A stretch of 61,099 nt of DNA, filler included. It is 4 parts of 4 records of this genome, joined end to end, with 100 filler letters (N's around TTAATTAATTAA, not from the genome) between each part and the next. Parts side by side here need not be neighbours in the genome. Positions count along the whole stretch, not along the records: positions 47,314 to 53,459 come from SRR20825019_2270; 3 more parts are not named here. One strand, 5' to 3'. The notes beneath the pieces are model-generated. The model ran no database searches and was not told the origin of the DNA. It worked only from the letters and a program-made list of their open reading frames with translations. Numbering within the stretch: the first letter of the stretch is position 1; the number at the start of each line of letters is the position of its first letter. Shown piece after piece: positions 6,835-53,559 of this stretch. The translations under genes and the position numbers were made by a program.

Positions 6835-7969
6835 ATTAATGCTCGATACAGTTTCAAAATGAAACTGTGGTGTATATCTACCTGTTCTCGCTGGCCGTTT
6901 GGAAATTTCCAGTAAAGCAAACTGTAGTCAGTAGCAGTCACTGTTAGTGGTCTTCCAGTGGGTCAGGTAGTCGCCCCCTGGTGGGTCACTCCAGGGGTGG
7001 GTGGTGGGTGGTGGCAATCTCTGGAGCTCGCAGCCAGGCCGTGGGAGGATATGATCGAGCGCCCACCACGGTCGAACCGGCTGCCCTGGGAGGCGGCAAG
7101 CCTGCGGGCCCGGCGTTACAACAATTAGGAAGGCCTTATCCCCTTCCTTGTCTATTCGTTGCGAGCGGCAACAAGAGGTTACAATCACGATCAAGCAGCC
7201 CGGTGACGGGTGAAACGGTGTGATGTCTGTTGCAGATTTCAGCCCACACTGATCTCAGTCGTCCTCCCCCAAGGGCCAAGGGCCTATCTTGGTGAGGGCA
7301 GGTCGGCAATCTCGGGCTGAGGGGAGATCAGCCTCGACACATTGGATAAGGTCCAACGCTTATTATGCATGAAAATTCACGGTGTAGAATTATAATGGAT
7401 TCGACGGGTGATCTCTATTTGAGCTTTAAGTCTATTTTTATCCCAAATCGACAAGAACACTCCGCAACAATCGCGACTCGATGGCAAGCAAGCCTTACTG
7501 TGTGGTGTGTGGTAACCGTGGCCTACGGGGCTTCCAGCCAGTCATCAGTCTGGTCGATGGGCGGTGAGACTCAACGGGAGGCGGCGGTGGTGGCATTGGC
7601 GCCACCTCATTGACACTCGACATGCCGGTCCGGGTCCCAACCAATGCAGAACTCCTCCTGGTACTACGGTGGGATGCGTTGACAGTTTCTGGGCTCGTAA
7701 CAAGTTGAGTGTGGGAATGGAATTGTCAGGAGCAGTCCACGTGGCGCCTGATCGACCGCGACCAGGCCTCTAGCTAGTAATAGCGCACACGACAGCCACG
7801 CCCAGGACAATTTTCGTGGTTTCCACCATAACACTAAGCAATGGCGTTCTTTACCGCCGGTTGTTTGTCGTTCAGTCTACCGCCACCTGTGCACAAGCCT
7901 TGCAGTAGCCTTGCCATTTCATTGAAATAATTTATTCGTTCGCGACACAGTTGTCCTCACGTGGCAGTT

Positions 7970-10900
7970 ATGGCGAAGGACCGCGTTGACGCGCCGTTCT
8001 CCATTCAACTGCGGGCATACTGGGGATATGCGGTGTTGATCTTTCGTGGATTTTTGATCGACGTGTTCAACTTGGTGAAAGCTGTATTCTTCGGTCTTGG
8101 AAACAACTTGACCAAGAAGCCGGATGAGCGTTTTGTCCCTCTGCTTGACGGGTGGGTTTGTTTCTTCACCCGCCACTTGTACGGTCGTATCGAGGACTGT
8201 TGGAACCGCCCCATTGCGTCGTCACCAGAGAACTGGTTCGACGTGTGCGAGCGTGCTCGCAACGAGGACGGAGAGCTTGTATTGACCGGAAAAACAAGGC
8301 ACTGCCTTAATCTTGGTTCGTATAACTATCTTGGATTCGGCGGGCTTGATCCCTACTGCTCTCCGCGTGTCCAGGATTCGATCCGCAAGTATGGTGTAGG
8401 GGTTTGCCTGAGTCCCGCGGAGCACGGCACCCCTGTTGAGGTGGCGAATCTGGAGCGCAAGGTTGCCGACTTCCTGAATAAGGAGGATGCCATGATTGTT
8501 GGGATGGGCTTTGCGACGAACTCTTGGACTATTCCAGCTCTTGCTGAGCCCGGGTGCCTAATCATCAGCGACGCTCTCAACCACTTTTCTATTGTTGAGG
8601 GTGTTCGTGGCGCGGGTGCCAAGGTGAAAGTGTTCAAGCACAACGACCCCGCCGACTTGGAGAGCATCCTGAAGAACTCGATCAAGGCTGGTCGCGGAAA
8701 GGCTGGCGACAGCTATGTGCCATGGAAGAAGATCTTGATCATAGTTGAAGGTATATATTCGATGGAAGGCGAAATGTGCCGTATGCAGGAGATCATTGAT
8801 GTCAAGAAGAAATATAAGGCGTACTTGTACCTCGACGAGGCGCACAGTATTGGAGCCGTGGGAAAGGGTGGCCGCGGTGTCACGGAATACTTTAATGTTG
8901 ATCGCGATGAAGTGGACATTATGATGGGCACCTTCACCAAGTCTTTCGGCTCGATCGGTGGGTATATTGCCGGGAAAAAGGAGATTGTCTCCGCCCTTCG
9001 TGCAAACGCCGCCAACTATGTCTATTCAATGGCTATGTCACCTGCCTGTGCATCACAGGTCATTGCTGCCTTTGAGCTAATTCTTGGCGAGGATGGAACC
9101 GACCGTGGCCGTAAGAAGATTGCTGCACTAGTCCGGAACTCCAAGAAGTTCCGCCATGGTCTCGTTGAGCGCGGCTTCCGGGTCCTCGGAGACCCAGACT
9201 CCCCTGTGATTCCTCTTATGCTTTACCACCCGGAGTGGATCGCCGAGTTTAGCCGTGCCTGCTTCGAGCGCAAGGTCGCCGCCGTGGTGGTGGGATATCC
9301 CGCCACCCCACTCATGTACGGGCGCGCACGGTTCTGTGTCTCCGCTGCACACACAGATGATGAAATCGAGCTTGCTCTCAAGACCATCGATGAGATCGCA
9401 CCTCACGTTAAGTTTGATATCAACAACCCCAACCGCATTGCAGAGATGGAGGATCAGCACACCCCATACGAGGTGACGTCCGATGTGATTCCCGAGGTGG
9501 CCGAGTGGGAGCCGGAGCCTTTGGCTGTCATGCCATCCACAGTCCACAACTCGGTGAGCGTCGCTAGCGATGATGACAGCATTGCTCAGTTCTCACGCTA
9601 TGACTTCTTGGGCCTTGCGAAGCACCCGACCGTGATCGATGCGTGTGTCAAGACCGTCGATAAGTATGGTTGCGGTTCCTGCGGCCCGCGCGGTTTCTAC
9701 GGCACTGTTGATGTTCATTTGAAGCTGGAGGAGGACATCTCCAAGTTCATGGGAGTCGAGGCTTGCATTCTGTACTCGTTCGGTCTCAACACCGTGTCTT
9801 CTGTTATTCCCGCTTTCGCTAAGACCAGCGACTTGATTATTTGCGACGACGGTGTCAACTTTGCAGTGGAGAGCGGCGTGAATCTCGCACGCTGCAGCGT
9901 CAAGTACTTCCGGCACAACGATATGACCGATCTTCGTCGCGTGCTCCGTGAAGTCGAGAGTGAGGACGGCCTCACCTCATCCAACCTCCGCGACCCCCGC
10001 CGGCGCCGCTTCCTGGTGATCGAGGGTCTCTATCAGAAGACCGGCACCTTGGCCCCCCTCAAGGACATTCTCCACCTGAAGAAGAAGTACTGCCTCCGCC
10101 TCATCATGGACGAGAGCATGTCATTTGGCGTGCTGGGTGCTACCGGGCGTGGCGCCACGGAACACTGGGGCATGCCTGTGGAAGACGTTGACATTATATG
10201 CGCGTCTTTGGAATGTGCCACTGCGTCCGTCGGTGGTTTTGCCTGTGGCAATAAGGAGGTCGCTTCCCACCAGCGACTCTCAGGCTCTGGCTACACTTTC
10301 TCCGCGTCCCTGCCTCCGTTCGTTTCCGTTGGAACGTCAGAGGCACTCAAGATCATCGACAAGGAGCCCAGCAGGATCGCCCGCCTCCACGAGAATGCCG
10401 GATTGATGTACGAGAAACTTCACCTCGTCCCAGGCATTGACGTGTCTGGCGACCCCAGCTCCCCTCTTATGCACATTCGTCTGTCGAGGTCGACTGGCTC
10501 GCAGGAGGCAGACGAGGCTCGTCTCCTTGAGATTTGCAACTTGGTCAAGGAAGAGGCTGGAATGGAGTTCCACTTGAGCCGCTATGTAGTGAGGGAGAAG
10601 GTCACCCCTGCCCCTTCGATCCGGGTGTGCTTGTCTTCCCGCCACAACCGCACGGACATCGAGACCGCTGTGGATGCGATCGATGCCGCTTGCCACAAGG
10701 TGTTCCTGAAGGACAACACCATTCCCGAGGAGGTCACCGACCCTGAGCCGGCGTCGCTCCTCCGTGCCAACTCCAACGTGGAAATCATCAAGTCCTTCAC
10801 TGTAAACAACGCCCCGCTGGGCAGCGCGAAAATGGCGAAGCAGGTGGACCAGGCGGATGCCGATGACGTGGATGATATGCCCGAGGTATGGGTTCCCATC

Positions 10901-11995
10901 TTCGCTATCCTTGCCAACCTCTTCCGCGTGTTCCGGAGGTACCTGGCTGATCAGTCTCGTTGGGGAACCATGGTGGTCTTGCCCCTCCTCGAGAAGTTCC
11001 GCAATCCGATGTTTGACCAGTTCTTCAAGTTGGCCAGCGCCTGTGGTTCCGAGCCATTCTACACCGTAATGATCCCGACTCTGGTGTGGAATTTCCCGGA
11101 GACGTGGTACATGCGGTCTCTGGTGTTCTTGTTCGGCCTCAATGTGTATCTGGGCTCGTTCTTGAAGAACCTGATGTGCCTGAGGAGGCCCGAGACCATC
11201 TACGCCGGCAGCGCTGCGCAGGAGCACCTGGACTCGAGGGATTATGCGTGGCCATCGATCTACTGCATCAACGCGTGCTCACTTCCCTTCTTCGTCCTGA
11301 GATCTATGCACGGCAACTCATGGCTCTGGAACCAGGACCATCCCGCTGTTACCTTCTTCAACTACACCCTCGGGTTTGCGTGGGCTGGTAGCATTTGCCT
11401 GAGCAGGTTGTATCACGGTGTGGAGTCCCCGTCCGACGTGCAGGGAGGGATGCTCGTGGGAGCTATTGTCTTGCGTGTGTGGTTCACCGTTAGCGACTAC
11501 CTTGACCACTGGGTGCTGAGCGGCTGCGAGGGTTATATTTATGTGTCCTTCTTCTCAATCTTCCTGCTGCTTCTCCACCCCATGCCACGGCACATTACGT
11601 CCCAGGCGTCGGTGACATTCAAGCAGGCGTGCCGCAATGTATCATTCATGCAAGGGTTCTTCTTCGGCTCTTGCCTCCGTGAGAGGCACGGTTGGGAAAT
11701 CACATCCCCGGACTCCTTGTACCTCATGACTGTGCGCAATATCATCGGTTTCACCATCCTTGGATTGACGTACACCCTGGTCAGCCGTGGCTTCCGCCGT
11801 CTCATGGAAGTCGTGCTGAAGAAGCTCAGTACCACCAAGGAGGACACCGATTCCGTGGCGATGGCCAAGGAGCTCATCCGCACTCAGTACTACTCCCGGG
11901 CCGTGGTCCGCCATGCTGGGACGTTCGTGACATTCGCCTCAATCGGCCTCGCTGTATCCTATGTTGCCCCCATCGCGCTCAGCTTCCTGGCGTGA
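7970..11995 (+). CDS. Single-chain serine palmitoyltransferase LCB2-LCB1 fused to a C-terminal PAP2 / sphingoid-base-phosphate-phosphatase-like membrane domain
   Basis: One uninterrupted ORF of about 1340 aa. The LCB2 half has NLGSYNYLGF, YLDEAHSIGA and the PLP lysine motif GTFTKSFG. The LCB1 half has GSCGPRGFYGTVDVHL and lacks the lysine (ASLECA). The C-terminal domain has KNLMCLRRP, WPSIY and SRLYHGVESPSD plus multiple TM segments. Confidence 0.92.
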   Translation: MAKDRVDAPFSIQLRAYWGYAVLIFRGFLIDVFNLVKAVFFGLGNNLTKKPDERFVPLLDGWVCFFTRHLYGRIEDCWNRPIASSPENWFDVCERARNEDGELVLTGKTRHCLNLGSYNYLGFGGLDPYCSPRVQDSIRKYGVGVCLSPAEHGTPVEVANLERKVADFLNKEDAMIVGMGFATNSWTIPALAEPGCLIISDALNHFSIVEGVRGAGAKVKVFKHNDPADLESILKNSIKAGRGKAGDSYVPWKKILIIVEGIYSMEGEMCRMQEIIDVKKKYKAYLYLDEAHSIGAVGKGGRGVTEYFNVDRDEVDIMMGTFTKSFGSIGGYIAGKKEIVSALRANAANYVYSMAMSPACASQVIAAFELILGEDGTDRGRKKIAALVRNSKKFRHGLVERGFRVLGDPDSPVIPLMLYHPEWIAEFSRACFERKVAAVVVGYPATPLMYGRARFCVSAAHTDDEIELALKTIDEIAPHVKFDINNPNRIAEMEDQHTPYEVTSDVIPEVAEWEPEPLAVMPSTVHNSVSVASDDDSIAQFSRYDFLGLAKHPTVIDACVKTVDKYGCGSCGPRGFYGTVDVHLKLEEDISKFMGVEACILYSFGLNTVSSVIPAFAKTSDLIICDDGVNFAVESGVNLARCSVKYFRHNDMTDLRRVLREVESEDGLTSSNLRDPRRRRFLVIEGLYQKTGTLAPLKDILHLKKKYCLRLIMDESMSFGVLGATGRGATEHWGMPVEDVDIICASLECATASVGGFACGNKEVASHQRLSGSGYTFSASLPPFVSVGTSEALKIIDKEPSRIARLHENAGLMYEKLHLVPGIDVSGDPSSPLMHIRLSRSTGSQEADEARLLEICNLVKEEAGMEFHLSRYVVREKVTPAPSIRVCLSSRHNRTDIETAVDAIDAACHKVFLKDNTIPEEVTDPEPASLLRANSNVEIIKSFTVNNAPLGSAKMAKQVDQADADDVDDMPEVWVPIFAILANLFRVFRRYLADQSRWGTMVVLPLLEKFRNPMFDQFFKLASACGSEPFYTVMIPTLVWNFPETWYMRSLVFLFGLNVYLGSFLKNLMCLRRPETIYAGSAAQEHLDSRDYAWPSIYCINACSLPFFVLRSMHGNSWLWNQDHPAVTFFNYTLGFAWAGSICLSRLYHGVESPSDVQGGMLVGAIVLRVWFTVSDYLDHWVLSGCEGYIYVSFFSIFLLLLHPMPRHITSQASVTFKQACRNVSFMQGFFFGSCLRERHGWEITSPDSLYLMTVRNIIGFTILGLTYTLVSRGFRRLMEVVLKKLSTTKEDTDSVAMAKELIRTQYYSRAVVRHAGTFVTFASIGLAVSYVAPIALSFLA

Positions 11996-24424: not shown

Positions 24425-24524
24425 NNNNNNNNNNNNNNNNNNNNNNNNNNNNNNNNNNNNNNNNNNNNTTAATTAATTAANNNNNNNNNNNNNNNNNNNN
24501 NNNNNNNNNNNNNNNNNNNNNNNN
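24425..24524. other. Artificial contig linker (N-run, TTAATTAATTAA six-frame stop, N-run)
   Basis: 100 nt long; the same structure occurs three times in the window. Confidence 0.97.
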
Positions 24525-35356: not shown

Positions 35357-36285
35357 TGTGAGGGAGTCAACAAAACACAACCTAACCATCCCCATTACTG
35401 AGTATGTAATATTCGTAGTTAGACAGTGGAGTGCAAATTAGTTCGAGTGTCTTCCCAGGTAGACACGAAGAGAATGGTGAACTTTTCCAACAGCTCAAGG
35501 CTTCGCACCCATCGCAAACAGCTCATCAGCCACCACGACGAGCAAAGGAGCGGCGCCCGTTCATTGGCAGAGAGTCATGACGTAGTGTGTGCTGACAGTG
35601 TAGTGGAGGATCTGGGCCCGGCCCGCAAGTCATCAACCATCGGTAGTGGGTGAGTGGCCGGGCCCCCCGCCTGGGCAGGCCGGGCCCGCCGCGCATGGCG
35701 GCGCCCGCCGCTCGCCCCCGGCGGCCATGGGCGTCTCGCCAGCCCAAGGGAGTGAGCTGGCGCCGGGGTCTGGCAGCATCCCCGGCGCCGGCCGAGCCGT
35801 TTGCGTCACCGCAGGCGGCGGCCGGCGAGATGCCTGGTGGTAGGGGCCGGTCAGGTGTCAGTCTGCGACCGGGGGTCCAAGAATAGCAAGCCGACCCGTC
35901 GTGGCCGCGGGCGGGGGCTGGACTGCCCCGCCGGGCAACAGCCATGCGAGGCTGCTTGATGGCCACGCTCACTCGCGGCCGGAGCCGGACGTCGTATCGA
36001 AGCTTCCAACCACGTCGGCCTGTCGAGTGTCGATTGACAGATTCTTCCCTATGACCCTATCGTGAAACTGTTCCGGAAACAACGAGAAATCTTGCACGGT
36101 AAATCCGATTAGCAGGCGATGTTATCGATGGTGTTCCATAGTTGGCCTTAATGGCTCTGTCACGCTAGGCCCTAGGCATCTCTGGGCCGAGTATGTCATT
36201 GAAGAGCTCGGCTTGACGGAGGTCATCAGTGCTCACCTGAAGTAAAAGTGCCACTCATGAAGGATCTACAGAGGCGTAGGCGAGG

Positions 36286-38248
36286 ATGGTGGCCGAGGGA
36301 AATACGTCTATTTTGGACACTGACACCACCTTTGAGGACTTTGGGTTGGATGACAGGCTTTTAAAGGCCTGTTCGAAACTGAAGTATGACCATCCCACTT
36401 TAGTGCAGTCGCAGTGCATAAAGCTTGCCCTAGCGGGAAAAGATGTGCTTGCCAGAGCAAGGACGGGATCAGGAAAGACGGTAGCATACATGATACCGAT
36501 TATTCAACAGATCTTGGATGACTCAAAGGCTGGGAGAAAGCGCGGTGTGAAGTCAGTTGTGCTTGTGCCCACACGTGAGCTCTGTGAGCAAGTAAAAGAT
36601 GTGGCTGCGGGAATGTTGCAATATTGCAGCAAGAGCGACATCACCTTTGTGCAGTTATCGTCAGACCAATCCATCAAATCTCAAAAGTATGTGGAGACTG
36701 TGCATGCTCTTGATCGTACTAACCCTTAAGTGCAGGACCTTGCTGAGGGACCTTCCTGACATTGTAGTTGCAACCCCTGGGAGGTTAGCCCAGCATCTGA
36801 CTGCAAAGAATGTAGTTTTGAAGGATACCTTGAAATTTGTTGTTATTGACGAGGCAGATTTGATTCTTTCTTATGGTTACGATAATGACATGAGAGAAAC
36901 GAAAAAGTACTTGCCTAAGTTGTGCCAGTGCTTCTTGATGTCTGCCACTATCAATCCTGAAGTTGAGGAGCTCAAGAAAAATATGCTGCACAACCCTGCT
37001 ATCGTCAAGCTCGAAGAAAGTGCTGCGGCTAGTGGTGACTTAGAACAGTTTAGCATCCAATGTACCGATAGGGACAAGTTTTTGTTATCGTTTGCTCTGT
37101 TGCGCCTCCAATTGATTAGTGGAAAAGCAATATTCTTTGTTAATGACGTGGAACGGTGCTATAGATTGCGACTTTTCTTAGAGCAGTTTTCTATTTCTTC
37201 AGCAGTCCTGAACTCAGAATTGCCGCAAAATTCGAGATCTCATATCCTTCAGGAGTTCAATAAGGGCGTGTTCGACTACCTGATTGCAACTGATACATCC
37301 CTAGACGATTTTGATTCTGATGTGGATTCTGATGATGACGATATGGATGCCGGTGAAGAGTATGATGAAGATGAGGGCAAACCTGCAAAGAATAAGAAGA
37401 GCAATGTAGACATGAAAAAGGATAGCGAGTATGGTGTTGCCCGCGGTGTAGATTTCAAAGACGTAGAAACTGTAATTAATTTTGATTTCCCAAGGACTGT
37501 GAAGTCCTATACCCATCGGATTGGTCGGACTGCACGTGGAGGCGCTACTGGTAATGCTATTTCTTTCGTATCCGAGGAACATGCTGCAGTGTTTGAAAAG
37601 GTAAAAGCAAAACAAGAGAAGGATGGCGCTGATATCAAGCCATTCGCTTTCAAAATGACGCAGCTGGAGGGGTTCCGGTATCGCGTGGAAGACGTGTTGC
37701 GGTCGGTGACGCGTGTTGCTGTGCGGGAGGCACGGTTGAAGGAGATCAAGAAAGAAATCATTAACTCAGAGAAGCTGAAGACTCATTTCGATGACAATCC
37801 TCACGACTTGGATGCGTTGAAGCACGACAAGCCGCTACGTCCATCTGCTATCAAGCCTCACTTGAAGCACATTCCTGATTATCTCGCACCTAAAAATGTG
37901 GACATGTTGCCTCAATCAAAGGAGAGATCTGGGCACGGAGGCTATGGCGGAGGAAGCAAGAAAAGAAAGGGCGCTGATGACCCTCTGCAGACATTTACAT
38001 ACGATGGCGGAGACAAACGGCCGAGGAACGCAGATGCCAGCATGCCGGATGAGAAGTTTTCTGGTTCCAATTCACAGAGGGGAGGGAAGCGTAAGGTTGG
38101 CTCTCGGGTCCAGGGCGGCACTGAGCACCTTAGCCGTCACAAGAAGTTCAAGCTCATGCGCGATCGAAAATATGACAATAAGCGTGCCCAGGGCTACAAG
38201 GGAGCTCGTGGAGGAAAGAAGAAGCGTGTGGCTGGTCAGTATGAGTAA
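36286..38248 (+). CDS. DBP9: DEAD-box RNA helicase DBP9/DDX56, 2 exons
   Basis: ARTGSGKT, PTREL, DEADLILSYGY, SAT, EYGVARGVDF and HRIGRTAR, plus DBP9-typical FRYRVEDVLRSVTRVAVREARLKEIK. Confidence 0.93.
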
Positions 38249-38287
38249 AGCTTGAGTGTCCTTCATTTGGGTGCACGGAAACATTTA

Positions 38288-39910
38288 TCATCTCATGCTA
38301 TACCGTCCCATACTACCGCCAGGAGCTCGGGGTGCCGCCCGGCGGCCGTTCGGTGAGGCTTGGGCTTGGGATCGTGTAGTCACTCCACGTCCGGTAACCT
38401 TCCCGAATCCCATCGCCACATCATCTGTTGGCGTTGGTGTCCGGCTAGACTGCTTCACAGGGGACTGATTTGTTCTTGAACCCATGGGTGCTGCTCGGCC
38501 ACGTATAGGTGATCCATATGCACTCCCTGTGATAGTTGCGTCAACATCGAATTCTGCCATCTATATATATATATCGTTCCATACCATAAGCTTGTTCTGT
38601 TTGCCTCATCCTATCATTCATTGGTTGGATTCCTCGCACAGGAGACGAAGGGTTTGTACTCCTCAGCGTCTGCATTCCAATGTCAGCTCCGCCCATATCA
38701 TTAGTCTTAAGCACTCACCCTGCCATATGGACCAGGCGAACCTCCGCCTGGTGACTGGCTACCCTCCTGCAAAGCCTCAATATTCTGAGGTCGACCCTTA
38801 CCCGGCTCAGAGAGAGGACCTGGGCAAGGCGGATAATTTCCATATTTCTTCCTGTATTCATCACCGGCCCTCCACATCCTAGCTTCCCATTCTTTTAGCC
38901 AGTGTTGTTGCGGTCCGATAATACTCCCAGGGCGCATTAGGCGGAGCCACCCAATTATCTCCGGCGCAGTAAACTTATAGTGCTTCATCGTATAGGCTGC
39001 AATCAGAGATCCCGTCCTACCTAAACCCGCCTTGCAGTGGACAGCAACAACACCAGGCTCATTTTCAGCAACCTCCAAAAACTTTCTCAAGATATTCTCA
39101 GGAGGAGTGCTTCCGTCTATGAAATACATTTCATAGTGCCTGATACCATGGTCGGTAAATCTCCTTTTGTCATACAGTTTCTTATTTGTCCTCACAACCC
39201 CGGTAACACCCATGCGCTTAAAGTGAGGAATGTAGTCCTCAGGGGTACACATGTAGATTCCAGGGCCAATTTCTATTCTTGTCGCCTGAGGGCCACTGAA
39301 AGAAATAAACTTTCCCGGCAGGGTCCAGTTGAAATCACCATTTTCCACTTTTTCAAAGTACTCATATTCTTGAAGATCAAAGTTATCAAAATCGATGAAT
39401 TTGTTTTCTTTCGCTTTGTAGAGACCCCTGACGACATCCAAGATTGTCAAGTTGAAGGTTGACACCCCATACGACGCATCGCGGAAAGGGATAAACGGAG
39501 GATAAATTCCCATGAAAGGGCGATACGCATCCTCCGGTGTTCGATTCAAAAACATGACCTATGCAATCAGTTAGCCCCCAAAAATTCAGTTATAGAGTGG
39601 GTACACATACAGCATAACAGCAGATTAAAGTTGCCCCACACGCCCGCTTGTGACCATCGTTACTTGTATAATGATATATCTTCTTCTTTGCGTGTTGCGG
39701 ATCGTTCAGTTTCTGATTTAAAACTTTTGAATATCGGTACAAGCAGCCCATATGCAACGGTCCAAAGTCGGCAAAGAACGGCTCGTAAACCAGTTCATTG
39801 TCTATGCTGAAGAAGTGTGCGTTTGGAGTTTGCCGAGGGGTTGTACGCAAAGTAACAAAGTACAGCCTGTCCGGAATGAACTCTAGCGCATTATTCAATT
39901 CATCAGCCAT
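38288..39910 (-). CDS. CDC14: Dual-specificity phosphatase CDC14, multi-exon
   Basis: DRLYF, YEPFFADFGPL, PFRDAS, ENGDFNW, the catalytic motif VHCKAGLGRTG and RPGSIIGPQQ. Confidence 0.95.
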
Positions 39911-41211
39911 CTGAAGTTAAATTTAAACTGAATTTGTCTTATCCCCTAGTCCGTAACCCAAAAGGGACAGTACTTCGGTACAGCCCAATGAGACAATCCT
40001 TATGTAGGACGCTACCCCTAATAAGTGGAATTACCTGCTTATTTATTGTTCGGTGGAGTTAGCAAACACTAGGGATTGAAAGCATAGAGCGCTGTAAGCT
40101 CTAGATTTGTAAGTTACCAGTTTGGCGGGGCTTGGTCCCATCATGCCACCATGAAACCTAAGCTCCCAATGCATTCGACATATGCTGGTCCACAACAGGG
40201 TCGTTGGCACGCAACTGCGAGTCATCATCACAGGCCCGCGCAGGTGCCGGCCGCCGGGGCGGACGGGCGGTTGCCGCCTGCTCGGTCAGTGTATTGTTAC
40301 CCGGAATTCAGACGGATCGACTGAGTTCTCCTTACTGCTGGTGGATGCTGATCCGACCACACTGATCATCGTCATGACTTCACTCAGGTGCGGCCAGTGT
40401 GCCGGAGTGCCGGGCCGCCCACACAGCGGCCGTGGACAGCACCGCGCCACAAACAAGGCAAGCCTGGCCCGCTGAGTGCCAGCTGCTGGGGGCACTCTGG
40501 TACCTTCGCCTCGTTCCCACCAATAACGTGGCTTGGTGATACGTCACAAAACGTTTCTTCCCTTATCCGACCGTGCACCAAAAACCAGGAGGAGCTTTCG
40601 GTTTTTTGCGTCACTCTGTTAAATTGAGACTCATCGTTGTTCATCGATCGACGTCTTGCAACCAAAAATTACCTGGCTCGGTTCGGCGCCCGCGTGCCCG
40701 ATCGCCCTCGGGCGCCGGGCCCCTATTTGCGTGCTGGCGTTGGCCCTCCCGGCTCGCAACGGCATCGATCTCGTCGACAAAGCGGCGGCGCACCGCCATG
40801 CGAGCCGCGGTCACGCCAGCACGGTGATTGCATTCTCGGTAGGTTCGTTGGGTCTTATCGCACCTGCATCGCAGCCCGGAGCCGCCCTCGGGTCGGCCGC
40901 GGAGCCGCCCGCTCTGGCGCCTGGCAGTGATACTCAGAGCTCACGTAGCACGGGGCGCTCCGCCCGGCCGCCGGCCGTTTGGTCCTGCGCTGCAGCCTAG
41001 TGTTTCGGCCCAACAACTGCGAGGAGGTGGCTTTGGCCTAGCACTGCTCGAGGGCACGCTGAACGCTGGCGCTTCACGCGCAACGTGTGTGTGGTTTTTT
41101 TTTTTTTTTGCCAAATCCTTTTGCAAAATCTCGGCAACTCGAAGGGGCGCTAAGATTTCAGCTCCATAAATATTTAGTTGTGTTCTAGTGAAAATCTTTC
41201 ATAGATTCGAA

Positions 41212-41890: not shown

Positions 41891-43361
41891 CTATGCCCAC
41901 CACTGGGAAACAAGGTGATGGGGAAAATCCCCAAACGCGCCGACCTTGCAAAGCGCCATAGCAACTTCACCAGCCAGAAGCCAAACGATGATCCACTCTA
42001 GACGTTCAGACTTTTGATGCTGGTTGATTTCAAGGAAAAATTTGGTATTTAGCTGAGACTTGAATCAGACAAGAACCCATAGTTGAATACCAGAACAAGC
42101 GCACCAACACACCTGTATAAGGTCGAGCTTGAAGTCCAGGCGCTTAAATCGCGACTCGACCTCAAACTCCTCTCTTAGCCCGTCCCATAGTTTCGCAAAC
42201 CTTTCTGACTTCCACGCCGTATCGGACCTAATGCTTGGTCAGAGCCGATTACGGGTTCACCCGTGTACAGTTTCCTAACCTATCTAATAGTCGCAAGTTG
42301 CGAATCATGTCAGTTAAGATTGCGTTGTTTGTTGCCACCGACTTGAAAAGCATTTGTTGCTGCAAAGCAAAGGATCCCCTCTTTTCCACATCCCCGTTCA
42401 TTGTTCGAAACTGCTCCAACATCTCATTCACCTGATCAAGGAGTCAGTCTCAACAAACCCTTGTCGTAGCTGGCGCACACCTTTCCCTCATAGTGATCCA
42501 GAGCTACAGTATGACCTATCACACTGGATATCACTCGAAGATGGTGAATGTCCAGGTTAACGACAGAAATGAACTCTGGGTACACACCCTCTTCCCTTGT
42601 CGGCCGCAAACTTACAGCATAGTCTATTGTGGATTAGTTACATTTAACTGCATCGACGTGGCATACCTTCAGCGGCTGGAAGTTCGAATGGCTCTGTACA
42701 GTACTTCCGAGACTGCTTGATGATCTCCTTGATCTTCCACTCTTCAAAGTTGTAGAACACGACAGACCCATACCCAAACACAAATAGATGCCGTTTCTCG
42801 TTTGGAAGTGGCGGCTCCATGGTGGAGTCGACGTCTCCGTCAGGCATCACGTTCGACTGAAAACTCAGGAGGAGTCCATCCCGTTGAAGGTAGTGAACAC
42901 AGTCAGTTTTCGAGAAAACCTCGGAATAATATTTCATGAAGTCGATTCGCCTCCTGCAAAGCATAAGCATGAGTGAACACTCAAGCGATATGAACAGCTA
43001 GAACATACGCTATATAGAAGGCCCGAATGGGATATACCCGTCGAATATTCGGAATTTGAGACTTTGGAACTTGAAGTTGCGACGTATCACTTGCACTCGC
43101 ACTCAAAACAATAGAGTTGTTCTCTTGTCTCGTTGTGTCTGTAAGGTGTCTCTTTTGAAAGTCACTTGGCAAGCGGGTGTGTGTCAAAGGTCCAAGAGTG
43201 CAACACTGAAGAAAGTGTCGGGTCCCTAGCTTGCCCACTGGCCCCCAAAAGTCCTCTCTGTGTCGAAAAGGCGAGCTAGTCACTCCGAGACCGCCTGCCA
43301 TGGCCCAAACTCTTGACGAGAAGGCGGCTTGCCGTGACATACTAACGAGACGGTGGTTCAT
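41891..43361 (-). CDS. RMD1/RMND1 (DUF155) family protein, multi-exon
   Basis: LFVFGYGSVVFYN, SVALDHYE, NLRLLDRSDTAW, LREEFEVESRFKRLDFKL and HQKSERLEWIIVWLL. Confidence 0.85.
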
Positions 43362-46879: not shown

Positions 46880-47183
46880 GTCAACGCCCAGGGGGGCCTC
46901 GCTAACGCGAGATAGCGGGCAGATAAAATAAACCAGTTATTTCTCAAACTGCAGCTGCTTGACTACCATTCTTATTTTTATTTTGAGCGGGGCGGGTGGG
47001 AAACGCCAAGCCGAACTGGGCCCGGAAAACAGCTGACCAGACCGGCCCATACCGCTGGGGCACAGAGCCGCCGTGCCCTCACTGACTGCCGAGCGGGAGG
47101 CCCATGACAACTGTGGCCAATCGAGCGGTCCGGGCCCGGCCTGGCGTCCCGTGGTCAGCCGTCGTGAGGCGGAAGGCACCCGA

Positions 47184-47213
47184 GGTCCGGGTCGGTCCGG
47201 GTCGGTCCGGGTC
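47184..47213 (+). repeat. Tandem 10-mer (GGTCCGGGTC)x3 running into the contig end
   Basis: Direct reading. Confidence 0.8.
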
Positions 47214-47313
47214 NNNNNNNNNNNNNNNNNNNNNNNNNNNNNNNNNNNNNNNNNNNNTTAATTAATTAANNNNNNNNNNNNNNNNNNNNNNNNNNNNNNN
47301 NNNNNNNNNNNNN
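47214..47313. other. Artificial contig linker
   Basis: N-run + TTAATTAATTAA + N-run. Confidence 0.97.
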
Positions 47314-47340
47314 ATTTTCCGAAATTTCCCGGAAATTTTC
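47314..47340 (+). repeat. Left terminal inverted repeat of contig 3
   Basis: ATTTTCCGAAATTTCCCGGAAATTTTC matches the reverse complement of 53432-53458 (ATTTTCCGGAAATTCCCGGAAATTTTC) at 25/27 positions. Confidence 0.85.
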
Positions 47341-47583
47341 CCCAGAAATTTTCCCACAGGGTAAGATGTAATGTTTCTCCATAAATTTTTAAGTACAATG
47401 TATACGTTGCACACATGTAAACTCGTATGTACAAACTCGTATGTAACGTTTACGGTTACAGTATTGTATACAATGCATACTAATTTATACACATGGTGTG
47501 TATTAATACACCCGTATTACACGTTGCGGTTGTATACGGTACAACATATGGGAATAGTCCTGCATCCACCAGGCGGCCGTGTT

Positions 47584-50500
47584 ATACCTTTCCTTGTGTA
47601 CACGTAGTGTGAGTTTCTTGTGTAACACCAATAAAAAACGGGAAGTTTACAACCATACATATGTATACGTTAAAAGACAGGATCTGTCATCGGGATTTAT
47701 ACGAGGAACGTACTCGCACGATATCTATCATGCGCGCATTAGTGTGTAACGTTTTTATAGCTTACGTAAATCTTACAATATTAGAATAACCACGCGACTA
47801 TATAACTATACGGGTAATAATACACCTTTCCTACGTAAGGCACTACATGTATTAATAATACACATATTAAGCAAAGTAAAAAAAGAAAAATGTGTGATCC
47901 CTTATACAGCAAGTTTTACACGAACATGCTTACACGTATGTAGGACATAACATATACGTTTCACAGTAACTCTCAAGTCATAGTGTATTTACATGACGTT
48001 GAACTTACATGCACCTCTAAACGTACAACAGTCTGTTTAATACCATGTCATGTGCGTGTAACATACGTTGCATGTGCAGGTTGTTATACTTACACGGATT
48101 ATACGTTTTCGTTGGAAAGGTGTATCTATGTATGTTGTAGAACATACGTGTGGTATATTATAACCACACACAATTATGTTGTCCATGTGTATACAGACTA
48201 CACACGTTACGATACATCCCACATCATGTATTGTTACGTAGCCTACAATACGTTTAAGATGACACACACCTTTCCGGGTAAGTGTTGCATACTACCATGT
48301 GAGTCCTTCCGGACAAAAATTAATATAATATATAAACTATGGTACGTTAATGTGTACTGTGTACGGGCACATAACATATTTTAGTACAGTGGGCTGTTAC
48401 TTCTACATAGATAATTATTACCTTTCCAGGAATAACGTACATTCTTTCGGTGTGCGTAAGCATCCCCAAAGTGGAAGTGTTTCCTACAGGGATCACACCG
48501 TTACATGCACGGCATGCTTGGTGTAACAGTATTTACGTCCCGTAGGATTACGGAAGTTATTTGTGAAGTATTAATTACATTGCGTATAATAAAGTTCCTT
48601 ATATCTGTACGGTGTACTACTGTAGTTTTTTTTGTTGCAGACTACTTGTTGTAGGCATGTACTGGTTTACCCTGGAAAGGTGTACACAACGGGGCGTACC
48701 ACTAAAAATGTATGTTGAATGTGTATTAATATAATGCATATAGTAAAGTTAGTACTACTACCCAATATGTAAGTACACCTTTCCATTATAGTATTAAACA
48801 TAACGTAACACATCAAAATCCAACATAACAGATTAATTACGTATAGGAGCACACGTACACGCTACCCCAAAAATATCTCGCATACACCAAGTATGTAAAG
48901 TGCGTAGTAGTACACATACGCAAGGTTCGGGTAGTAACGCCGCGCACATCACGTAGACGAACCATGTATTGGTAATGTAAGCCTGGGTAGTTTAACAACT
49001 TACGTATACGTTTTAGTATGTGTTTTGCTGTAAACAATTCCGCGTAGGCACCGTACAGGAAAGGTGTATATCCTCCAGATATGACGCATTATGCTAGCGG
49101 AACGTGTATGCTCATAAACTCATACATTACCCCCGGGGAAGACCTACCCCTAGTAGTGTGTTATGTAACGGATCCTGTGCGGGAAGGATTATACGCGTTT
49201 TAACCTGGGTGAGGCCTAGTTATAAGAACATACTGTGCATGCAGCTGTGTACATACAGGACGGTGTAACGTATAGACACAACTGAGGTAATGTTATTAAC
49301 CACGTACACGGTCTACATTTTTTTTTTGTGTCCTTGTGAGTATACTTTTAAACCACCTTGAATGTATCATACGGAAAGGTGTACTACCCCTAGGTGTAAC
49401 GTAGTCCATATCAAGGTGGTTATCAAGTACATTAATTGATATACATATATGCTGCCGTTAACGATAAGCACTATACGAACGTAAGCTTACTTATGTACAC
49501 TACGGTTACTCTGCACTATTGAAGTACATCCCGTATACACATTTTTGTACGCTTACCTTTCCATATTTTTTTTGTGGTGTATTACATGTACAAAACATTA
49601 ACAACAATTTAAAAGTTTAGTACACCATGTTTAGATGACCTCGAGAATCGTACTATATGTGTGTACGTGGTACCGCTTTTTTACACGTCACGATATTAAC
49701 ATACCCCGGACACTTTATGAAAGCCGTAGGTCACGTATTTAATATTACACGTGTATAGGTATGGAGTGCAACTATTATGCCTGGAAATATATTTTTCTTT
49801 TTTTTTGTATTTTAACTAATGCTTATACACTACACATGTACAGTATGGAAAGGTGTGCTATGCACATAGCATGCCATGTATACACGGTATAGGTGTAACC
49901 CCGTGTGTATGTACTATATCCCGTCGTGCTTGAGTAAGTACAACCCTACCGCGTACTTTCTGTGTAAACGTCTATACACATTGTTTGTAATACACGAATT
50001 ATCTGTAGTACACAGTACACCTTTCCTGTGATGTTCATACCTATACGCAGTAATACAAACATACAAAAAAAATTCAACGGAACTTGTACATACGTAACAA
50101 CTTATCCGTAGTATACTACATGTGGTATAAACAAGCCATATCCCACCGGCATACGTTACTACCGTAATATATTAATATGTTACATTGTTTTTGTTGTATT
50201 AGCCCCGTAGTATAGTACAGTCCTACTATGGAAAGGTGTAATTCGTGTACGTGTACGTAACTATCCATCATATCCGGAATGTTACATATATTATGCATGG
50301 TATATTACTGTTTACAAGATGGTAATATGTTATTGCTATACTATATCCCGTTGTATACGTATCATACATACATTTCTCGGAAAGGTGTGCTAAGCCATAA
50401 CGTACGCACATAACCAGTGTGTACAAAATATATGTATAAACAGCAGTTGCTGATATTTTTAATAATGGGCTTTGTCTGGTAAGGACTTGTCTTACATATC

Positions 50501-53070
50501 ATATACACACCTTTCCTGGGGAGATACCCATTTGAGTAACAACTACATCAAACAAACAAAAAACGTATAAATTGTAAAGACATACTACCTATAACGCGTA
50601 GTTAGATTACACGCAACGGGGTATCGTACTGTAGTCACACATTGTCAGCTTTACACCTTTCCAGTGGTATGTACTTCCTGCAGTTAAATAACATACGATT
50701 ACTGGAACTGCGTAACATGTGTATACATAGTGCATACTACCCGGGAGAAGTTTTGCGTGCATGTACCGTAATGGATTGCTTTGGTTTGGTGTATGTAATA
50801 CATCCCGGTATATGTCAATCCTGGAAAGGTGTGTGAACGTTGTACGCATATAATGTATGCAGGTTAACACACGTATACATCTTTTTATACCGTTAGGTAC
50901 ACTTGTAGCATACAATTGTACACATACATACATCATACGCCCGCGCTGTGTGTCCATGTGAGTTGACGCTTACGTAAGTATTACCTGCGGTTACCTTTTC
51001 GGAAAGCTGGCTAGGCATGTATGTTATTAATGATCTTACGTACACATGCATGTGGTAAGTCATGTAAAAGTATGACCCCGTGGGAAACACCCCATCATGT
51101 ACACTGTAGTAGTTTATACATTGCCCGGTGCATGAGAATAAATACAACATGTTTTACTTTTTTGGGATTATATTGTATGCATACTAATTTTTAATGACAT
51201 ACTTTTTTTTAGGAGCGGTGTGATCAGGTAAACATCATATGTTTATATCTGGTATATACATTTGTTACGTACACTGTGCTTGCACGGCCTTGCATATGAT
51301 TATTTGGATACTGCATGTGGTATAACTATAGCTTAACAACGTACATGCAGGCAGGTAGTTGCCGCAGTACCGTATAAAACGTTTATATTCGTTAACATAC
51401 CCATACGTATAGGATGTGTAACACACGTGTTCTACCCGGGTAGTATACCCGTTTGTCTGGAGGTGTGTTCTTCCATTTTATTATTTGTGTAACAAGTAAT
51501 ACGCATACACTACATCCTGGAAAGGTGTGTACTATCTTGCATTATTTAAAAGCACAACTGCACGTGCAATATGCGACACAGTCCGGTAAGACCTACAACG
51601 TAACAACGTCGTGATCTTGTTCACTACGTGGTACGTGTTGTAGGTGTGTATAAATACGTACATTAATGCCGTACTATTATGTTTTCGCGTTTACGCCATG
51701 TCACGTAAGCGATATATTCCCCGTGTCGCGTAGTATAATATGAATCCCCGGGTACACCTTTCCATATTAAGTACGCGTGCTGTTTGTATACATAAATTTC
51801 AACAAACATAATAATAATAATATGAGATGCAACATATACCAAGCTCGTACAGGAATAACACGTCTGTTTAATACTTTGCGTTTACAGTTTGCTAACCCCC
51901 GTTGGTTTTATGTTGTACAACACGTATAAAATAGTACTTGTTGCTGTTACCTGGTTGGACGTGTATAAACTCGGAGAACCTACAGCGTCATACAACAACA
52001 TACACGTATCGGTAAGGCTGATGTTTTTTTACCTTGTAATGTTTGTGCGTGTTGGTACCGGGTGATGTTACGTCTTACGAAAGGGATGAGTTCGGTACTA
52101 TATAAGCCTACGGGTTGTGTATTGTAATCACATGTGTGCAACGTACATGTAATGCGAGCTTGTATGTATGGTTATTAATAAGATTATTATATGGGTATAC
52201 GTTCTCACGTAGGTTATCGTATTACCGTTTGATCTGCGTAGAACACACCTTCCCGCACGTGTAAATAGCAAGTCCCGAGTAGACTGTAACTGTACGCCTA
52301 TTATCCGAACACGTGTATCATACTAAAAAGGCACGTACTTGTTCCTCTCTATCTTTGCGGTTTAAATTAATACGTACAGTACGTCTTCCGGAAAGGTGCC
52401 TACTATATGTGTTGTATGCTGGCGGGTCACGTTAAGATAATATACCGGATAGAGCATACACAACATACTTGTATCGCCTGTGGCGGGAGGGTCGTGACCC
52501 CACACACCAAAACGTAACGTGGACATCGTCTGCGTTTGGTTTGTACGTACACGAGGTTTGCGTTATATTTTTTTTAAAATGTGCGTATACGTACATAATC
52601 AGAAACTACTATGGAAAGGTGTACATTATAATGCATTGTACTTCATCTACGTAAACCTTACTCATCAGTTAACGGTTACAATTAAATAACTACGTGTGTG
52701 TACGTTACATACATAGTGCTGTCGCACCTTTCCTATAATATTTATTTATAACAGCTAATATAAAAACCAAACACAATGCATTAATAATATTGTAAGGTTA
52801 TTGTTTATACATTGTAGTAACTTAACGTTTGCTACCCGCCCTACGCAATACGTATACCAGGCAGTTGTATATGTATACATGTATACACACGTGTTCTGTA
52901 TGTTTGACGGCTACTATATCCTCCTGTCAGATGTGTAGGATCACAAAATGCAGTGTCTTCTACCACGGACAACATCCAGTATGCATAAGCGTTATGCGCT
53001 GTGTGCTACTGGCGAGGATGGTATCTTATGTATATATGATGTGCGTACAATGTAAACTGTACACCTTTCC
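47584..53070. repeat. Dispersed bidirectional 10-mer GGAAAGGTGT/ACACCTTTCC (at least 18 exact and 5 near-exact copies)
   Basis: Plus strand: 48114, 48674, 49058, 49373, 49847, 50230, 50379, 50823, 51519, 52613. Minus strand: 47822, 48266, 48775, 50017, 50507, 50653, 51754, 53061. Variants keeping the GGAAAGGT core: 47584, 48418, 49553, 52390, 52724. Confidence 0.92.
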
Positions 53071-53431
53071 TATAGGATGTATTATAAGGCATACTATATG
53101 TAATGTAACATATTAAGCTACTATAAGTCGATGTATGTATCATTAAACGCAAGCGTATTATGATGTAATAAATGCGCATACATGCATAACATAAAGTTAA
53201 AGGTACATACCCGGTGCTGCGTACACCAAACAATATAATGCAGACATGTGTGGACAAACAATTGTGCTTAGGTATATAACATTATTACATAACGTACTGT
53301 TATACTAGTACAGCACTACACGTGTGTAATGTATATACAGATGTTACTGGGAAGGTTATACTCGTATGCGTTTAAAGTAAAAAAAATTTCATGTAATGTC
53401 GGTAAATGTGTAACGAGAAACTTTCCGACGA

Positions 53432-53458
53432 GAAAATTTCCGGGAATTTCCGGAAAAT
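53432..53458 (-). repeat. Right terminal inverted repeat of contig 3
   Basis: Inverted copy of 47314-47340 (25/27). Confidence 0.85.
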
Positions 53459-53459
53459 G

Positions 53460-53559
53460 NNNNNNNNNNNNNNNNNNNNNNNNNNNNNNNNNNNNNNNNN
53501 NNNTTAATTAATTAANNNNNNNNNNNNNNNNNNNNNNNNNNNNNNNNNNNNNNNNNNNN
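53460..53559. other. Artificial contig linker
   Basis: N-run + TTAATTAATTAA + N-run. Confidence 0.97.

Follow-up and report, generated by a model that had tools for sequence, protein, structure and literature searches.

The DNA analysed here (hereafter the window) is a 61,099-nt stretch from a bacterial assembly, and one of its contigs, 6146 bp long and lying at positions 47314–53459, carries 18 exact copies of a 10-mer, GGAAAGGTGT, most of them accompanied on one side by a T/G-rich block of ~20 nt. This contig is not part of the bacterial genome with which it is filed, having been mis-binned or co-assembled, and it belongs to a population of high-copy, non-coding molecules with relatives in marine metagenomes. 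The reading that we favour, though at slightly less than even odds, is that it is an array of guide-RNA (gRNA) mini-genes on the kinetoplast-like organellar DNA of an uncultured, marine, kinetoplastid-like euglenozoan. What we put forward is that the contig works like a gRNA gene array; it is not filed as a member of kinetoplastid kinetoplast DNA (kDNA).

Across the whole window, GGAAAGGTGT occurs 19 times, with 18 copies falling within 47822–53070, 10 on the plus and 8 on the minus strand (Table 1). The expected number per window is 0.18, as judged from 100 dinucleotide-preserving shuffles, in which the maximum was a single copy and none reached 19. Markov models trained on the contig predict 0.006–0.13 copies at orders 1–3, 2.3 at order 4 and 11 at order 5, the high values at the last two orders arising because the models have learnt the motif itself. 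Five additional sites in the contig hold the core GGAAAGGT without the complete word (47586, 48420, 49555, 52390 and 52726). These counts are identical to those of the first-pass annotation, a model's reading of the letters that had also described longer identities around two pairs of copies (CTACTATGGAAAGGTGTA at 50230 and 52613, and ATCCTGGAAAGGTGTGT at 50823 and 51519), both of which are present, and had proposed a comparison with a Markov background, under which the enrichment holds at orders 1–3. The nineteenth copy, at 42477–42486 on the minus strand, lies inside a bacterial contig and is best taken as a chance occurrence, because it lacks an upstream T/G-rich block and because 0.18 copies are expected per window anyway.

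The DNA between the copies is not repeated, in agreement with the earlier description. When the contig is aligned with itself (blastn, word size 9), the sole match is a 27-nt inverted pair that joins its two ends, and Tandem Repeats Finder (TRF) reports short arrays at the ends only, no interior repeat scoring more than 54. A decayed tandem repeat can be ruled out because the inter-motif DNA does not self-align in either analysis. The purine–pyrimidine alternation noted for the background is likewise real: relative to expectation, AC and GT stand at 1.6x and TA at 1.37x, with GA at 0.48x and TC at 0.50x. The earlier verdict that the array is neither a satellite nor a CRISPR array is borne out by the same analyses and by the size and orientation of the repeats; CRISPR arrays consist of direct repeats of at least 23 nt, regularly spaced and in one orientation, whereas here a 10-mer recurs in random orientation at spacings of 20–680 bp.

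The implicit assumption of the first-pass annotation that the array is a feature of the bacterial genome does not stand. The contig is bounded on both sides by linkers of the form N44-TTAATTAATTAA-N44, a six-frame stop spacer that occurs at 24425–24524, 47214–47313 and 53460–53559; the window is therefore four contigs, features on either side of a linker are not physically linked, and the separate status of 47314–53459 had been missed. Its GC content is 38%, against 55–65% in the neighbouring contigs, which encode ordinary bacterial proteins (an apionate lactonase, a sugar ABC permease, a BioF-like enzyme and an AAA ATPase). There is no open frame of more than 146 codons in the contig, and its period-3 signal is 1.3, compared with 18.5 and 42 in the bacterial contigs. 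When open reading frames (ORFs) of at least 38 aa were translated with genetic code 4 (mitochondrial) and compared with Pfam, none of 110 reached the cut-off; a transfer RNA scan returned nothing, and Rfam gave no match at E ≤1.

Three sequencing runs of one study (X1–X3), which bear three different organism labels, contain 92–100% of the contig's words. In X1 and X2, which are not independent support because the window may itself derive from them, the contig is present as one 6146-bp Logan contig with zero differences, at depths of 232 and 54.5, respectively. All three runs also hold other contigs, of 6207–13242 bp, that share only the first 42 nt with it, and in X1 the summed word depth is 19,496 at this shared end versus 232 inside the contig. 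A paralogous copy of 50015–50074 alone is carried by 13-kb contigs of X1 and X2. The 6–13 kb molecules thus form a high-copy population in which an end, or a conserved region, is common to all and the interiors are unrelated. Kinetoplastid kDNA is recognized by this pattern, namely many high-copy molecules that have a conserved region in common and a variable region that distinguishes them. A separate study's sediment metagenome (X4) contributes a 6939-bp relative with the same ends, which departs from the contig by 286 letter differences and 35 gaps over 5 kb. The spectrum of substitutions between these two molecules is odd, with 233 transitions as against 95 transversions of the A<->C or G<->T type and only 7 of the A<->T or C<->G type.

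Further relatives were sought with a pattern of two inverted 10-mers placed 115–145 nt apart. A scan of JGI and TARA metagenomes returned 81 loci (individual loci are given below by L numbers), and 50 of these clearly belong to the family; most of the 50 come from one TARA sample, on contigs of 5–12 kb, and the rest from at least six further metagenome projects. Their GC content is 0.26–0.40 (0.35–0.40 without L084, at 0.26), their alternation 0.58–0.65, and they hold 5–24 cores per 1.3–4.2 kb. Another project contains orthologues, ~90% identical, of two molecules from the TARA sample; in a third pair the identity is 79–82%. In 168 kb of family loci there are no long ORFs, and the 80 longest of 1025 ORFs gave no Pfam hit at 1e-3, a kind of scan that would miss short gene modules and ribosomal RNA modules. 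Scanning one genome per prokaryotic species (596 billion bases) gave 13 loci, all with only the demanded pair (2–3 cores) and of ordinary composition, against ~17 expected by chance on an arithmetic estimate. The single locus obtained from IMG/VR was of the same chance kind, with the two demanded copies only, and the 26-nt end repeat gave none there.

The anatomy of the unit was derived from 627 unique instances oriented on GGAAAGGTGT. A T/G-rich, C-poor tract spans about −50 to −28, with T at 0.63 and C at 0.04 between −41 and −38, and the block proper, of ~20 nt, is placed 29–48 nt upstream of the 10-mer. No base bias is seen from −26 to −8, G is scarce from −7 to −1, and GGAAAGGTGT is followed by A (0.59) or G (0.27). 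Neighbouring units are oriented at random (329 tandem, 151 convergent and 149 divergent pairs), with a median tandem spacing of 191 bp and ~1 site per 270 bp over both strands. Spacing itself is asymmetric: divergent pairs are 153 bp apart at the 5th percentile and tandem pairs are rarely closer than 100 bp, whereas convergent pairs approach to 20–40 bp, the convergent class being inflated at 125–155 bp by the search pattern. This asymmetry places the body of the unit upstream of GGAAAGGTGT, at about −75 to +11.

Both parts of the unit are conserved. Over 27 units compared between orthologues of ~90% identity, divergence is 0–2% in the motif and 2–7% at −45 to −31, as opposed to 9–19% elsewhere; the bases that separate block and motif are no exception and change at the background rate. 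A divergent lineage is represented by L084 (Ga0193963_1001814, a 10,377-bp contig of 26% GC), a relative with 23 GGAAAGGT cores in 4.1 kb, mostly in the form TAGGAAAGGTT(A/T), and with the T/G tract retained upstream of them. Core and block accordingly predate the final two letters of the 10-mer.

The sequences of the blocks recur on molecules that are otherwise unrelated. Among 507 units with unrelated flanks, 64 pairs share at least 16 nt exactly within the block window, compared with 10.5 pairs under an inhomogeneous first-order Markov null (never more than 17 in any of 30 simulations) and with 7 pairs in an equal-size upstream control window, where the sharing is mostly due to motifs or blocks of adjacent units. 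Identity along the aligned block pairs is 0.94–0.97 at −43 to −36 and drops to 0.25–0.32 on either side. The shared pieces are diverse and follow no single consensus, with at least six non-T letters in 34 of the 64; blocks that are nearly identical measure 20 nt at the median (18–29 nt overall), and the position of the block shifts by a few bases relative to the motif. Several blocks of the contig take part in this repertoire (units as numbered in Table 1). The 17-nt core of the unit 6 block is identical in a unit of L071 (23 nt with one mismatch), through which units of L029 and L050 overlap the same core, the flanks of the compared pairs being unrelated; an 18-nt core of the unit 10 block is identical in L032, a 23-nt block of unit 17 matches a unit of L017 with two mismatches, and the unit 2 block is a near-match to a block of L093 (one mismatch in 19). 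Many different exact words with sharp borders, carried by unrelated molecules, argue for base-pairing to fixed targets rather than for a degenerate protein-binding site.

The ends of the contig belong to the part that the family has in common. Its first and last few dozen bases are A/T-tract repeat arrays (Table 1), of which the right one is an inverted counterpart of the left: 47314–47340 aligns with 53458–53432 at 92.6% identity (blastn, 27 nt, inverted). Family loci match the contig only over 42–47 nt at these ends and are unrelated to it in their interiors, and many TARA family contigs terminate in the same arrays. The assembly breaks at the left array (47314–47356). Where assembly continues, the order is array, a core of ~110 nt, a second array of ~200 nt and the variable region. 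Contigs that join both end regions exist; the contig in the window is cut inside the arrays, which are nearly palindromic and have their A/T tracts phased at 10–12 nt. The conserved cores are of two kinds, X and Y, and can be seen at L081 1–300, L093 1–290 and L025 (reverse) 1–340 and at the ends of L058, L072 and L050. Both kinds carry AGAGCGTGTTTAT, which is a candidate origin or class marker.

The contig represents one complete variable region of a high-copy non-coding molecule that has A/T-tract arrays around a core of ~110 nt; on the gRNA interpretation, this molecule would be a guide-RNA ‘minicircle equivalent’. Each 10-mer would mark a mini-gene of ~60–85 bp, about twenty of which would be present on the contig. 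Read on the other strand, the unit consists of ACACCTTTCC, ~7 C-poor bases, ~20 free bases and an A/C-rich block of ~20 nt (18–30). In this orientation ACACCTTTCC may serve as a promoter or initiation signal for an organellar RNA polymerase, because it is the sole conserved element beside the block and lies upstream of it. The block, for its part, would provide the putative guide portion of a short RNA that pairs with U/G-rich, C-poor targets. Such a composition is that of uridine-insertion-edited kinetoplastid mitochondrial mRNA. The predicted folding energy of the antisense (guide) RNA is −6.05 kcal/mol versus −10.4 kcal/mol for its complement, the antisense strand being the less structured of the two. 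A hairpin on the sense strand between block and motif was considered and rejected, the minimum free energy of −10.4 being that of control windows.

Several observations weigh against the gRNA interpretation. Conserved sequence block 3 (CSB3; GGGGTTGGTGTA) has no match at up to one mismatch in 168,158 bases of family loci, a set that includes six conserved-region ends and in which the conserved regions are represented only in part. A T/G-rich block is lacking at three of the contig's 18 exact sites, and for the contig taken by itself the sharing of blocks over at least 16 nt is not significant (3 of 21 units versus 2 of 21 controls). The blocks show no 3-base G periodicity (lag 3 ratio 1.01), a result on which a coding origin for them was also rejected. 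The 94 mismatches between near-identical blocks comprise 37 transitions and 57 transversions and give no clear G:U signature; the transition share does exceed the prediction from composition, but a general transition bias would explain this too. Staggered overlap between blocks is in excess by 2.0x at offsets of 6–9 and by 1.3x at 10–14, a weak indication that they tile a longer target, and the median block of 20 nt is shorter than reported gRNA duplexes. The spacers are also peculiar, in that GA, TC, AG and CT stand at 0.5–0.67x in the contig and in all family loci and the spacers nonetheless diverge between orthologues at the background rate. The gRNA interpretation does not account for this alternation, which could be mutational, structural or due to avoidance of motif-like purine runs.

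Among known systems, the gRNA-bearing kDNA of Trypanoplasma borreli is the closest precedent. Its gRNA contigs end in inverted repeats that flank unique sequence, and their loci are scattered over both strands in no visible order; each locus has a 9-nt motif, RYAGGCTTT, 20–40 bp from a duplex with a median of 28 bp and few G:U pairs (0.11 per base; PMC9679448). The family described here is similar in being high-copy and non-coding, with inverted repetitive ends, unique interiors and unordered loci in which a short motif lies near a guide-like block (PMC9679448). It differs in size (6–13 kb as against ~70 kb), in density (~1 unit per 270 bp as against ~23 loci per contig), in the motif itself, in its block of ~20 nt compared with the 28-bp median duplex, and in its conserved region, where no CSB3-like sequence was found. 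Trypanosomatid minicircles resemble the family in having conserved and variable regions, many high-copy classes and loci at a fixed distance from motifs (PMC8034629). That paper describes conserved motifs, thought to act in initiation or processing, beside the gRNA loci of L. pyrrhocoris and L. tarentolae; it also reports a bent region, which may be set beside the 10–12-nt phasing of the A/T arrays, and calls CSB3 universal for minicircles. At 0.5–2.5 kb, with 1–5 gRNA genes and both CSB1 and CSB3, those minicircles differ from the molecules of the family, which have ~20–50 units each and are without CSB3. Carriers in other kinetoplastids differ as well: those of free-living prokinetoplastids are given as 0.6–2.2 kb (PMC7859406), and in the Perkinsela candidates a tract rich in A, or in A and C, lies close to the complementary region (PMC4669381).

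A broader formulation, which we consider doubtful rather than improbable, is that there exists an ocean-wide and so far undescribed class of high-copy, protein-free molecules made up entirely of libraries of autonomous ~20-nt guide mini-genes, each driven by one 10-mer. These would be either the guide genome of an uncultured euglenozoan lineage that edits with short, near-Watson–Crick guides and is without the ‘universal’ minicircle sequence, or a new RNA-guided system. In an alternative that we regard as unlikely, the anatomy and the ~20-nt RNAs are the same, with the 10-mer as an upstream promoter element, but serve no uridine-insertion editing and belong instead to a piRNA-like (Piwi-interacting RNA) or other RNA-guided system of a marine host, whose replicon might be extrachromosomal, nuclear or viral. 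The structural evidence fits this equally; the motif ends ~28 nt before the block, a usual promoter-to-start distance, and the missing CSB3 in family loci, the blocks without coding periodicity or G:U signature and the block length of ~20 nt all speak in its favour. It leaves unaccounted for the strong T/G richness and C poverty (C 0.04) of the blocks, as well as the occurrence of small, high-copy, non-coding carriers with one shared region, which is the kinetoplast pattern, and the scans of the 168 kb turned up no protein gene of any kind. The type-I 21U-RNA (piRNA) mini-genes of C. elegans number in the thousands, lie on both strands with unique DNA between them, and have an upstream 8-mer ~40 nt before an RNA of ~21 nt. 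They are the nearest parallel to a single short word recurring at intervals of a few hundred bases, but they form nuclear chromosomal clusters in an animal, have another motif and no T/G richness, and are not carried on small multi-copy molecules.

The first-pass annotation had left open whether the 10-mer marks a dense array of sites for one sequence-specific protein or a promoter-like motif for many small-RNA genes. The second of these is the better supported, in view of the coupling of motif and block, the conservation of both, the recurrence of blocks, the random orientation of the units and the one-sided spacing; a plain array of protein sites, as for a centromere or packaging, does not account for blocks that are sequence-specific and shared. 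It is, in our judgement, improbable that T/G tract and 10-mer form a two-part site for one protein complex, engaged for instance in replication priming, partition, packaging or nucleoid organization. Such a site would be in keeping with two elements being all that is conserved between orthologues, the rest changing at the background rate, and with the density and median tandem spacing of the sites on both strands. It is hard to reconcile with different exact words of 17–25 nt that have sharp borders on unrelated molecules (64 pairs versus 10.5 expected) or with a block whose position jitters relative to the motif, and the asymmetric spacing fits a directional unit. A very unlikely origin is a diplonemid-type mitochondrial chromosome, a circle of 5–12 kb with a class-specific constant region and one gene fragment. 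In diplonemids these circles consist mostly of sequence that is constant within a class, and we know of no dense 10-mer array in them. The size of 6–13 kb, the presence of cores X and Y, the marine source and the mostly non-coding content agree with such a chromosome, and diplonemids have numerous small molecules whose classes are defined by shared regions. Neither the gene fragment nor the mostly constant sequence was seen in the family in ORF scans and blastn: no fragment is recognizable among 110 ORFs of the contig or among the 80 longest of 1025 family ORFs, and only the ends, rather than most of the chromosome, are common between molecules. In addition, guide or antisense RNAs were reportedly not detected in D. 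papillatum (PMC12699882). Least credible of all is that the contig is an element of the bacterium itself, such as a plasmid or phage, or an artefact of assembly or synthesis, or what is left of a satellite or mobile-element array after decay. Its place in a bacterial assembly and its inverted-repeat ends would suit this, but it has no ORFs, its GC content is far from that of its neighbours, blastn finds no match among 50,697 phage and 72,556 plasmid records, and prokaryotic genomes yield loci at chance level only; an artefact is ruled out because natural relatives of 79–94% identity exist in independent metagenomes.

Searches of one library of papers by word, complement and topic found no description of the 10-mer or of the family; among the matches listed, all papers holding the 10-mer or its complement looked like unrelated gene-expression or construct papers. 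Together, the 10-mer, spacer, block and shared end arrays provide a sharp signature for a family of non-coding molecules present in several marine metagenomes, with which the whole guide repertoire of an uncultured organism could be extracted from such data. If the gRNA interpretation is right, this opens to test the organization of guide-RNA genomes outside cultured trypanosomatids, the nature of the gRNA-gene promoter and the universality of the ‘universal’ minicircle sequence. According to a preprint (10.64898/2026.09.29.755400), free-living kinetoplastids were represented by just two public genomes in mid-2026, and the diversity of these organisms is for that reason largely unsampled. In practical terms, the contig contaminates a bacterial bin and should be removed from it.

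Table 1 Features of the foreign contig, in positions of the window. The 10-mer is an exact copy of GGAAAGGTGT (on the strand given) unless a variant is named; T+G is the fraction of T and G in the block.
Feature	Positions	Strand	10-mer	Block	T+G	Basis or remark
Whole foreign contig	47314–53459	.				N runs, GC profile, no coding signal, single 6146-bp Logan contig in X1 and X2
Left end, A/T-tract repeat array (GGAAATTTTCCC-like), common to family	47314–47356	.				Word depth, TRF period 13, TARA contig ends
Unit 1	47584–47641	-	47584–47593 (variant GGAAAGGTAT)	47622–47641	0.75	
Unit 2	47822–47879	-	47822–47831	47860–47879	0.70	
Unit 3	48066–48123	+	48114–48123	48066–48085	0.75	
Unit 4	48266–48323	-	48266–48275	48304–48323	0.65	
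Unit 5	48626–48683	+	48674–48683	48626–48645	0.70	
Unit 6	48775–48832	-	48775–48784	48813–48832	0.80	
Unit 7	49010–49067	+	49058–49067	49010–49029	0.85	
Unit 8	49325–49382	+	49373–49382	49325–49344	0.75	
Unit 9	49799–49856	+	49847–49856	49799–49818	0.75	
Unit 10	50017–50074	-	50017–50026	50055–50074	0.85	
Unit 11	50182–50239	+	50230–50239	50182–50201	0.75	
Unit 12	50331–50388	+	50379–50388		0.50	Weak; upstream block not T/G-rich
Unit 13	50507–50564	-	50507–50516	50545–50564	0.95	
Unit 14	50653–50710	-	50653–50662		0.55	Weak; block not T/G-rich
Unit 15	50775–50832	+	50823–50832	50775–50794	0.85	
Unit 16	51471–51528	+	51519–51528	51471–51490	0.75	
Unit 17	51754–51811	-	51754–51763	51792–51811	0.75	
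Unit 18	52342–52399	+	52390–52399 (variant GGAAAGGTGC)	52342–52361	0.65	
Unit 19	52565–52622	+	52613–52622	52565–52584	0.65	
Unit 20	52724–52781	-	52724–52733 (variant GGAAAGGTGC)	52762–52781	0.85	
Unit 21	53061–53118	-	53061–53070		0.50	Weak; block not T/G-rich
Right end, same kind of array, inverted relative to left	53413–53459	.				blastn, TRF, family-locus matches

The bacterial contigs of the window show some features of their own. The one that precedes the linker at 47214 ends, at 47160–47213, in a GGTCGGTCCG-like tandem repeat of ~10 nt (GGTCCGGGTCGGTCCGGGTC...), which is probably the cause of the assembly break there. A patch of lower GC content (46–48%) at 36000–40000, in a bacterial contig of 55% GC, includes a truncated-looking match to a DEAD-box helicase (36599–38248) and may be an island. 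An ORF of 1344 aa at 7961–11995 on the plus strand matches, over residues 100–486, enzymes of the 8-amino-7-oxononanoate synthase or serine palmitoyltransferase type.

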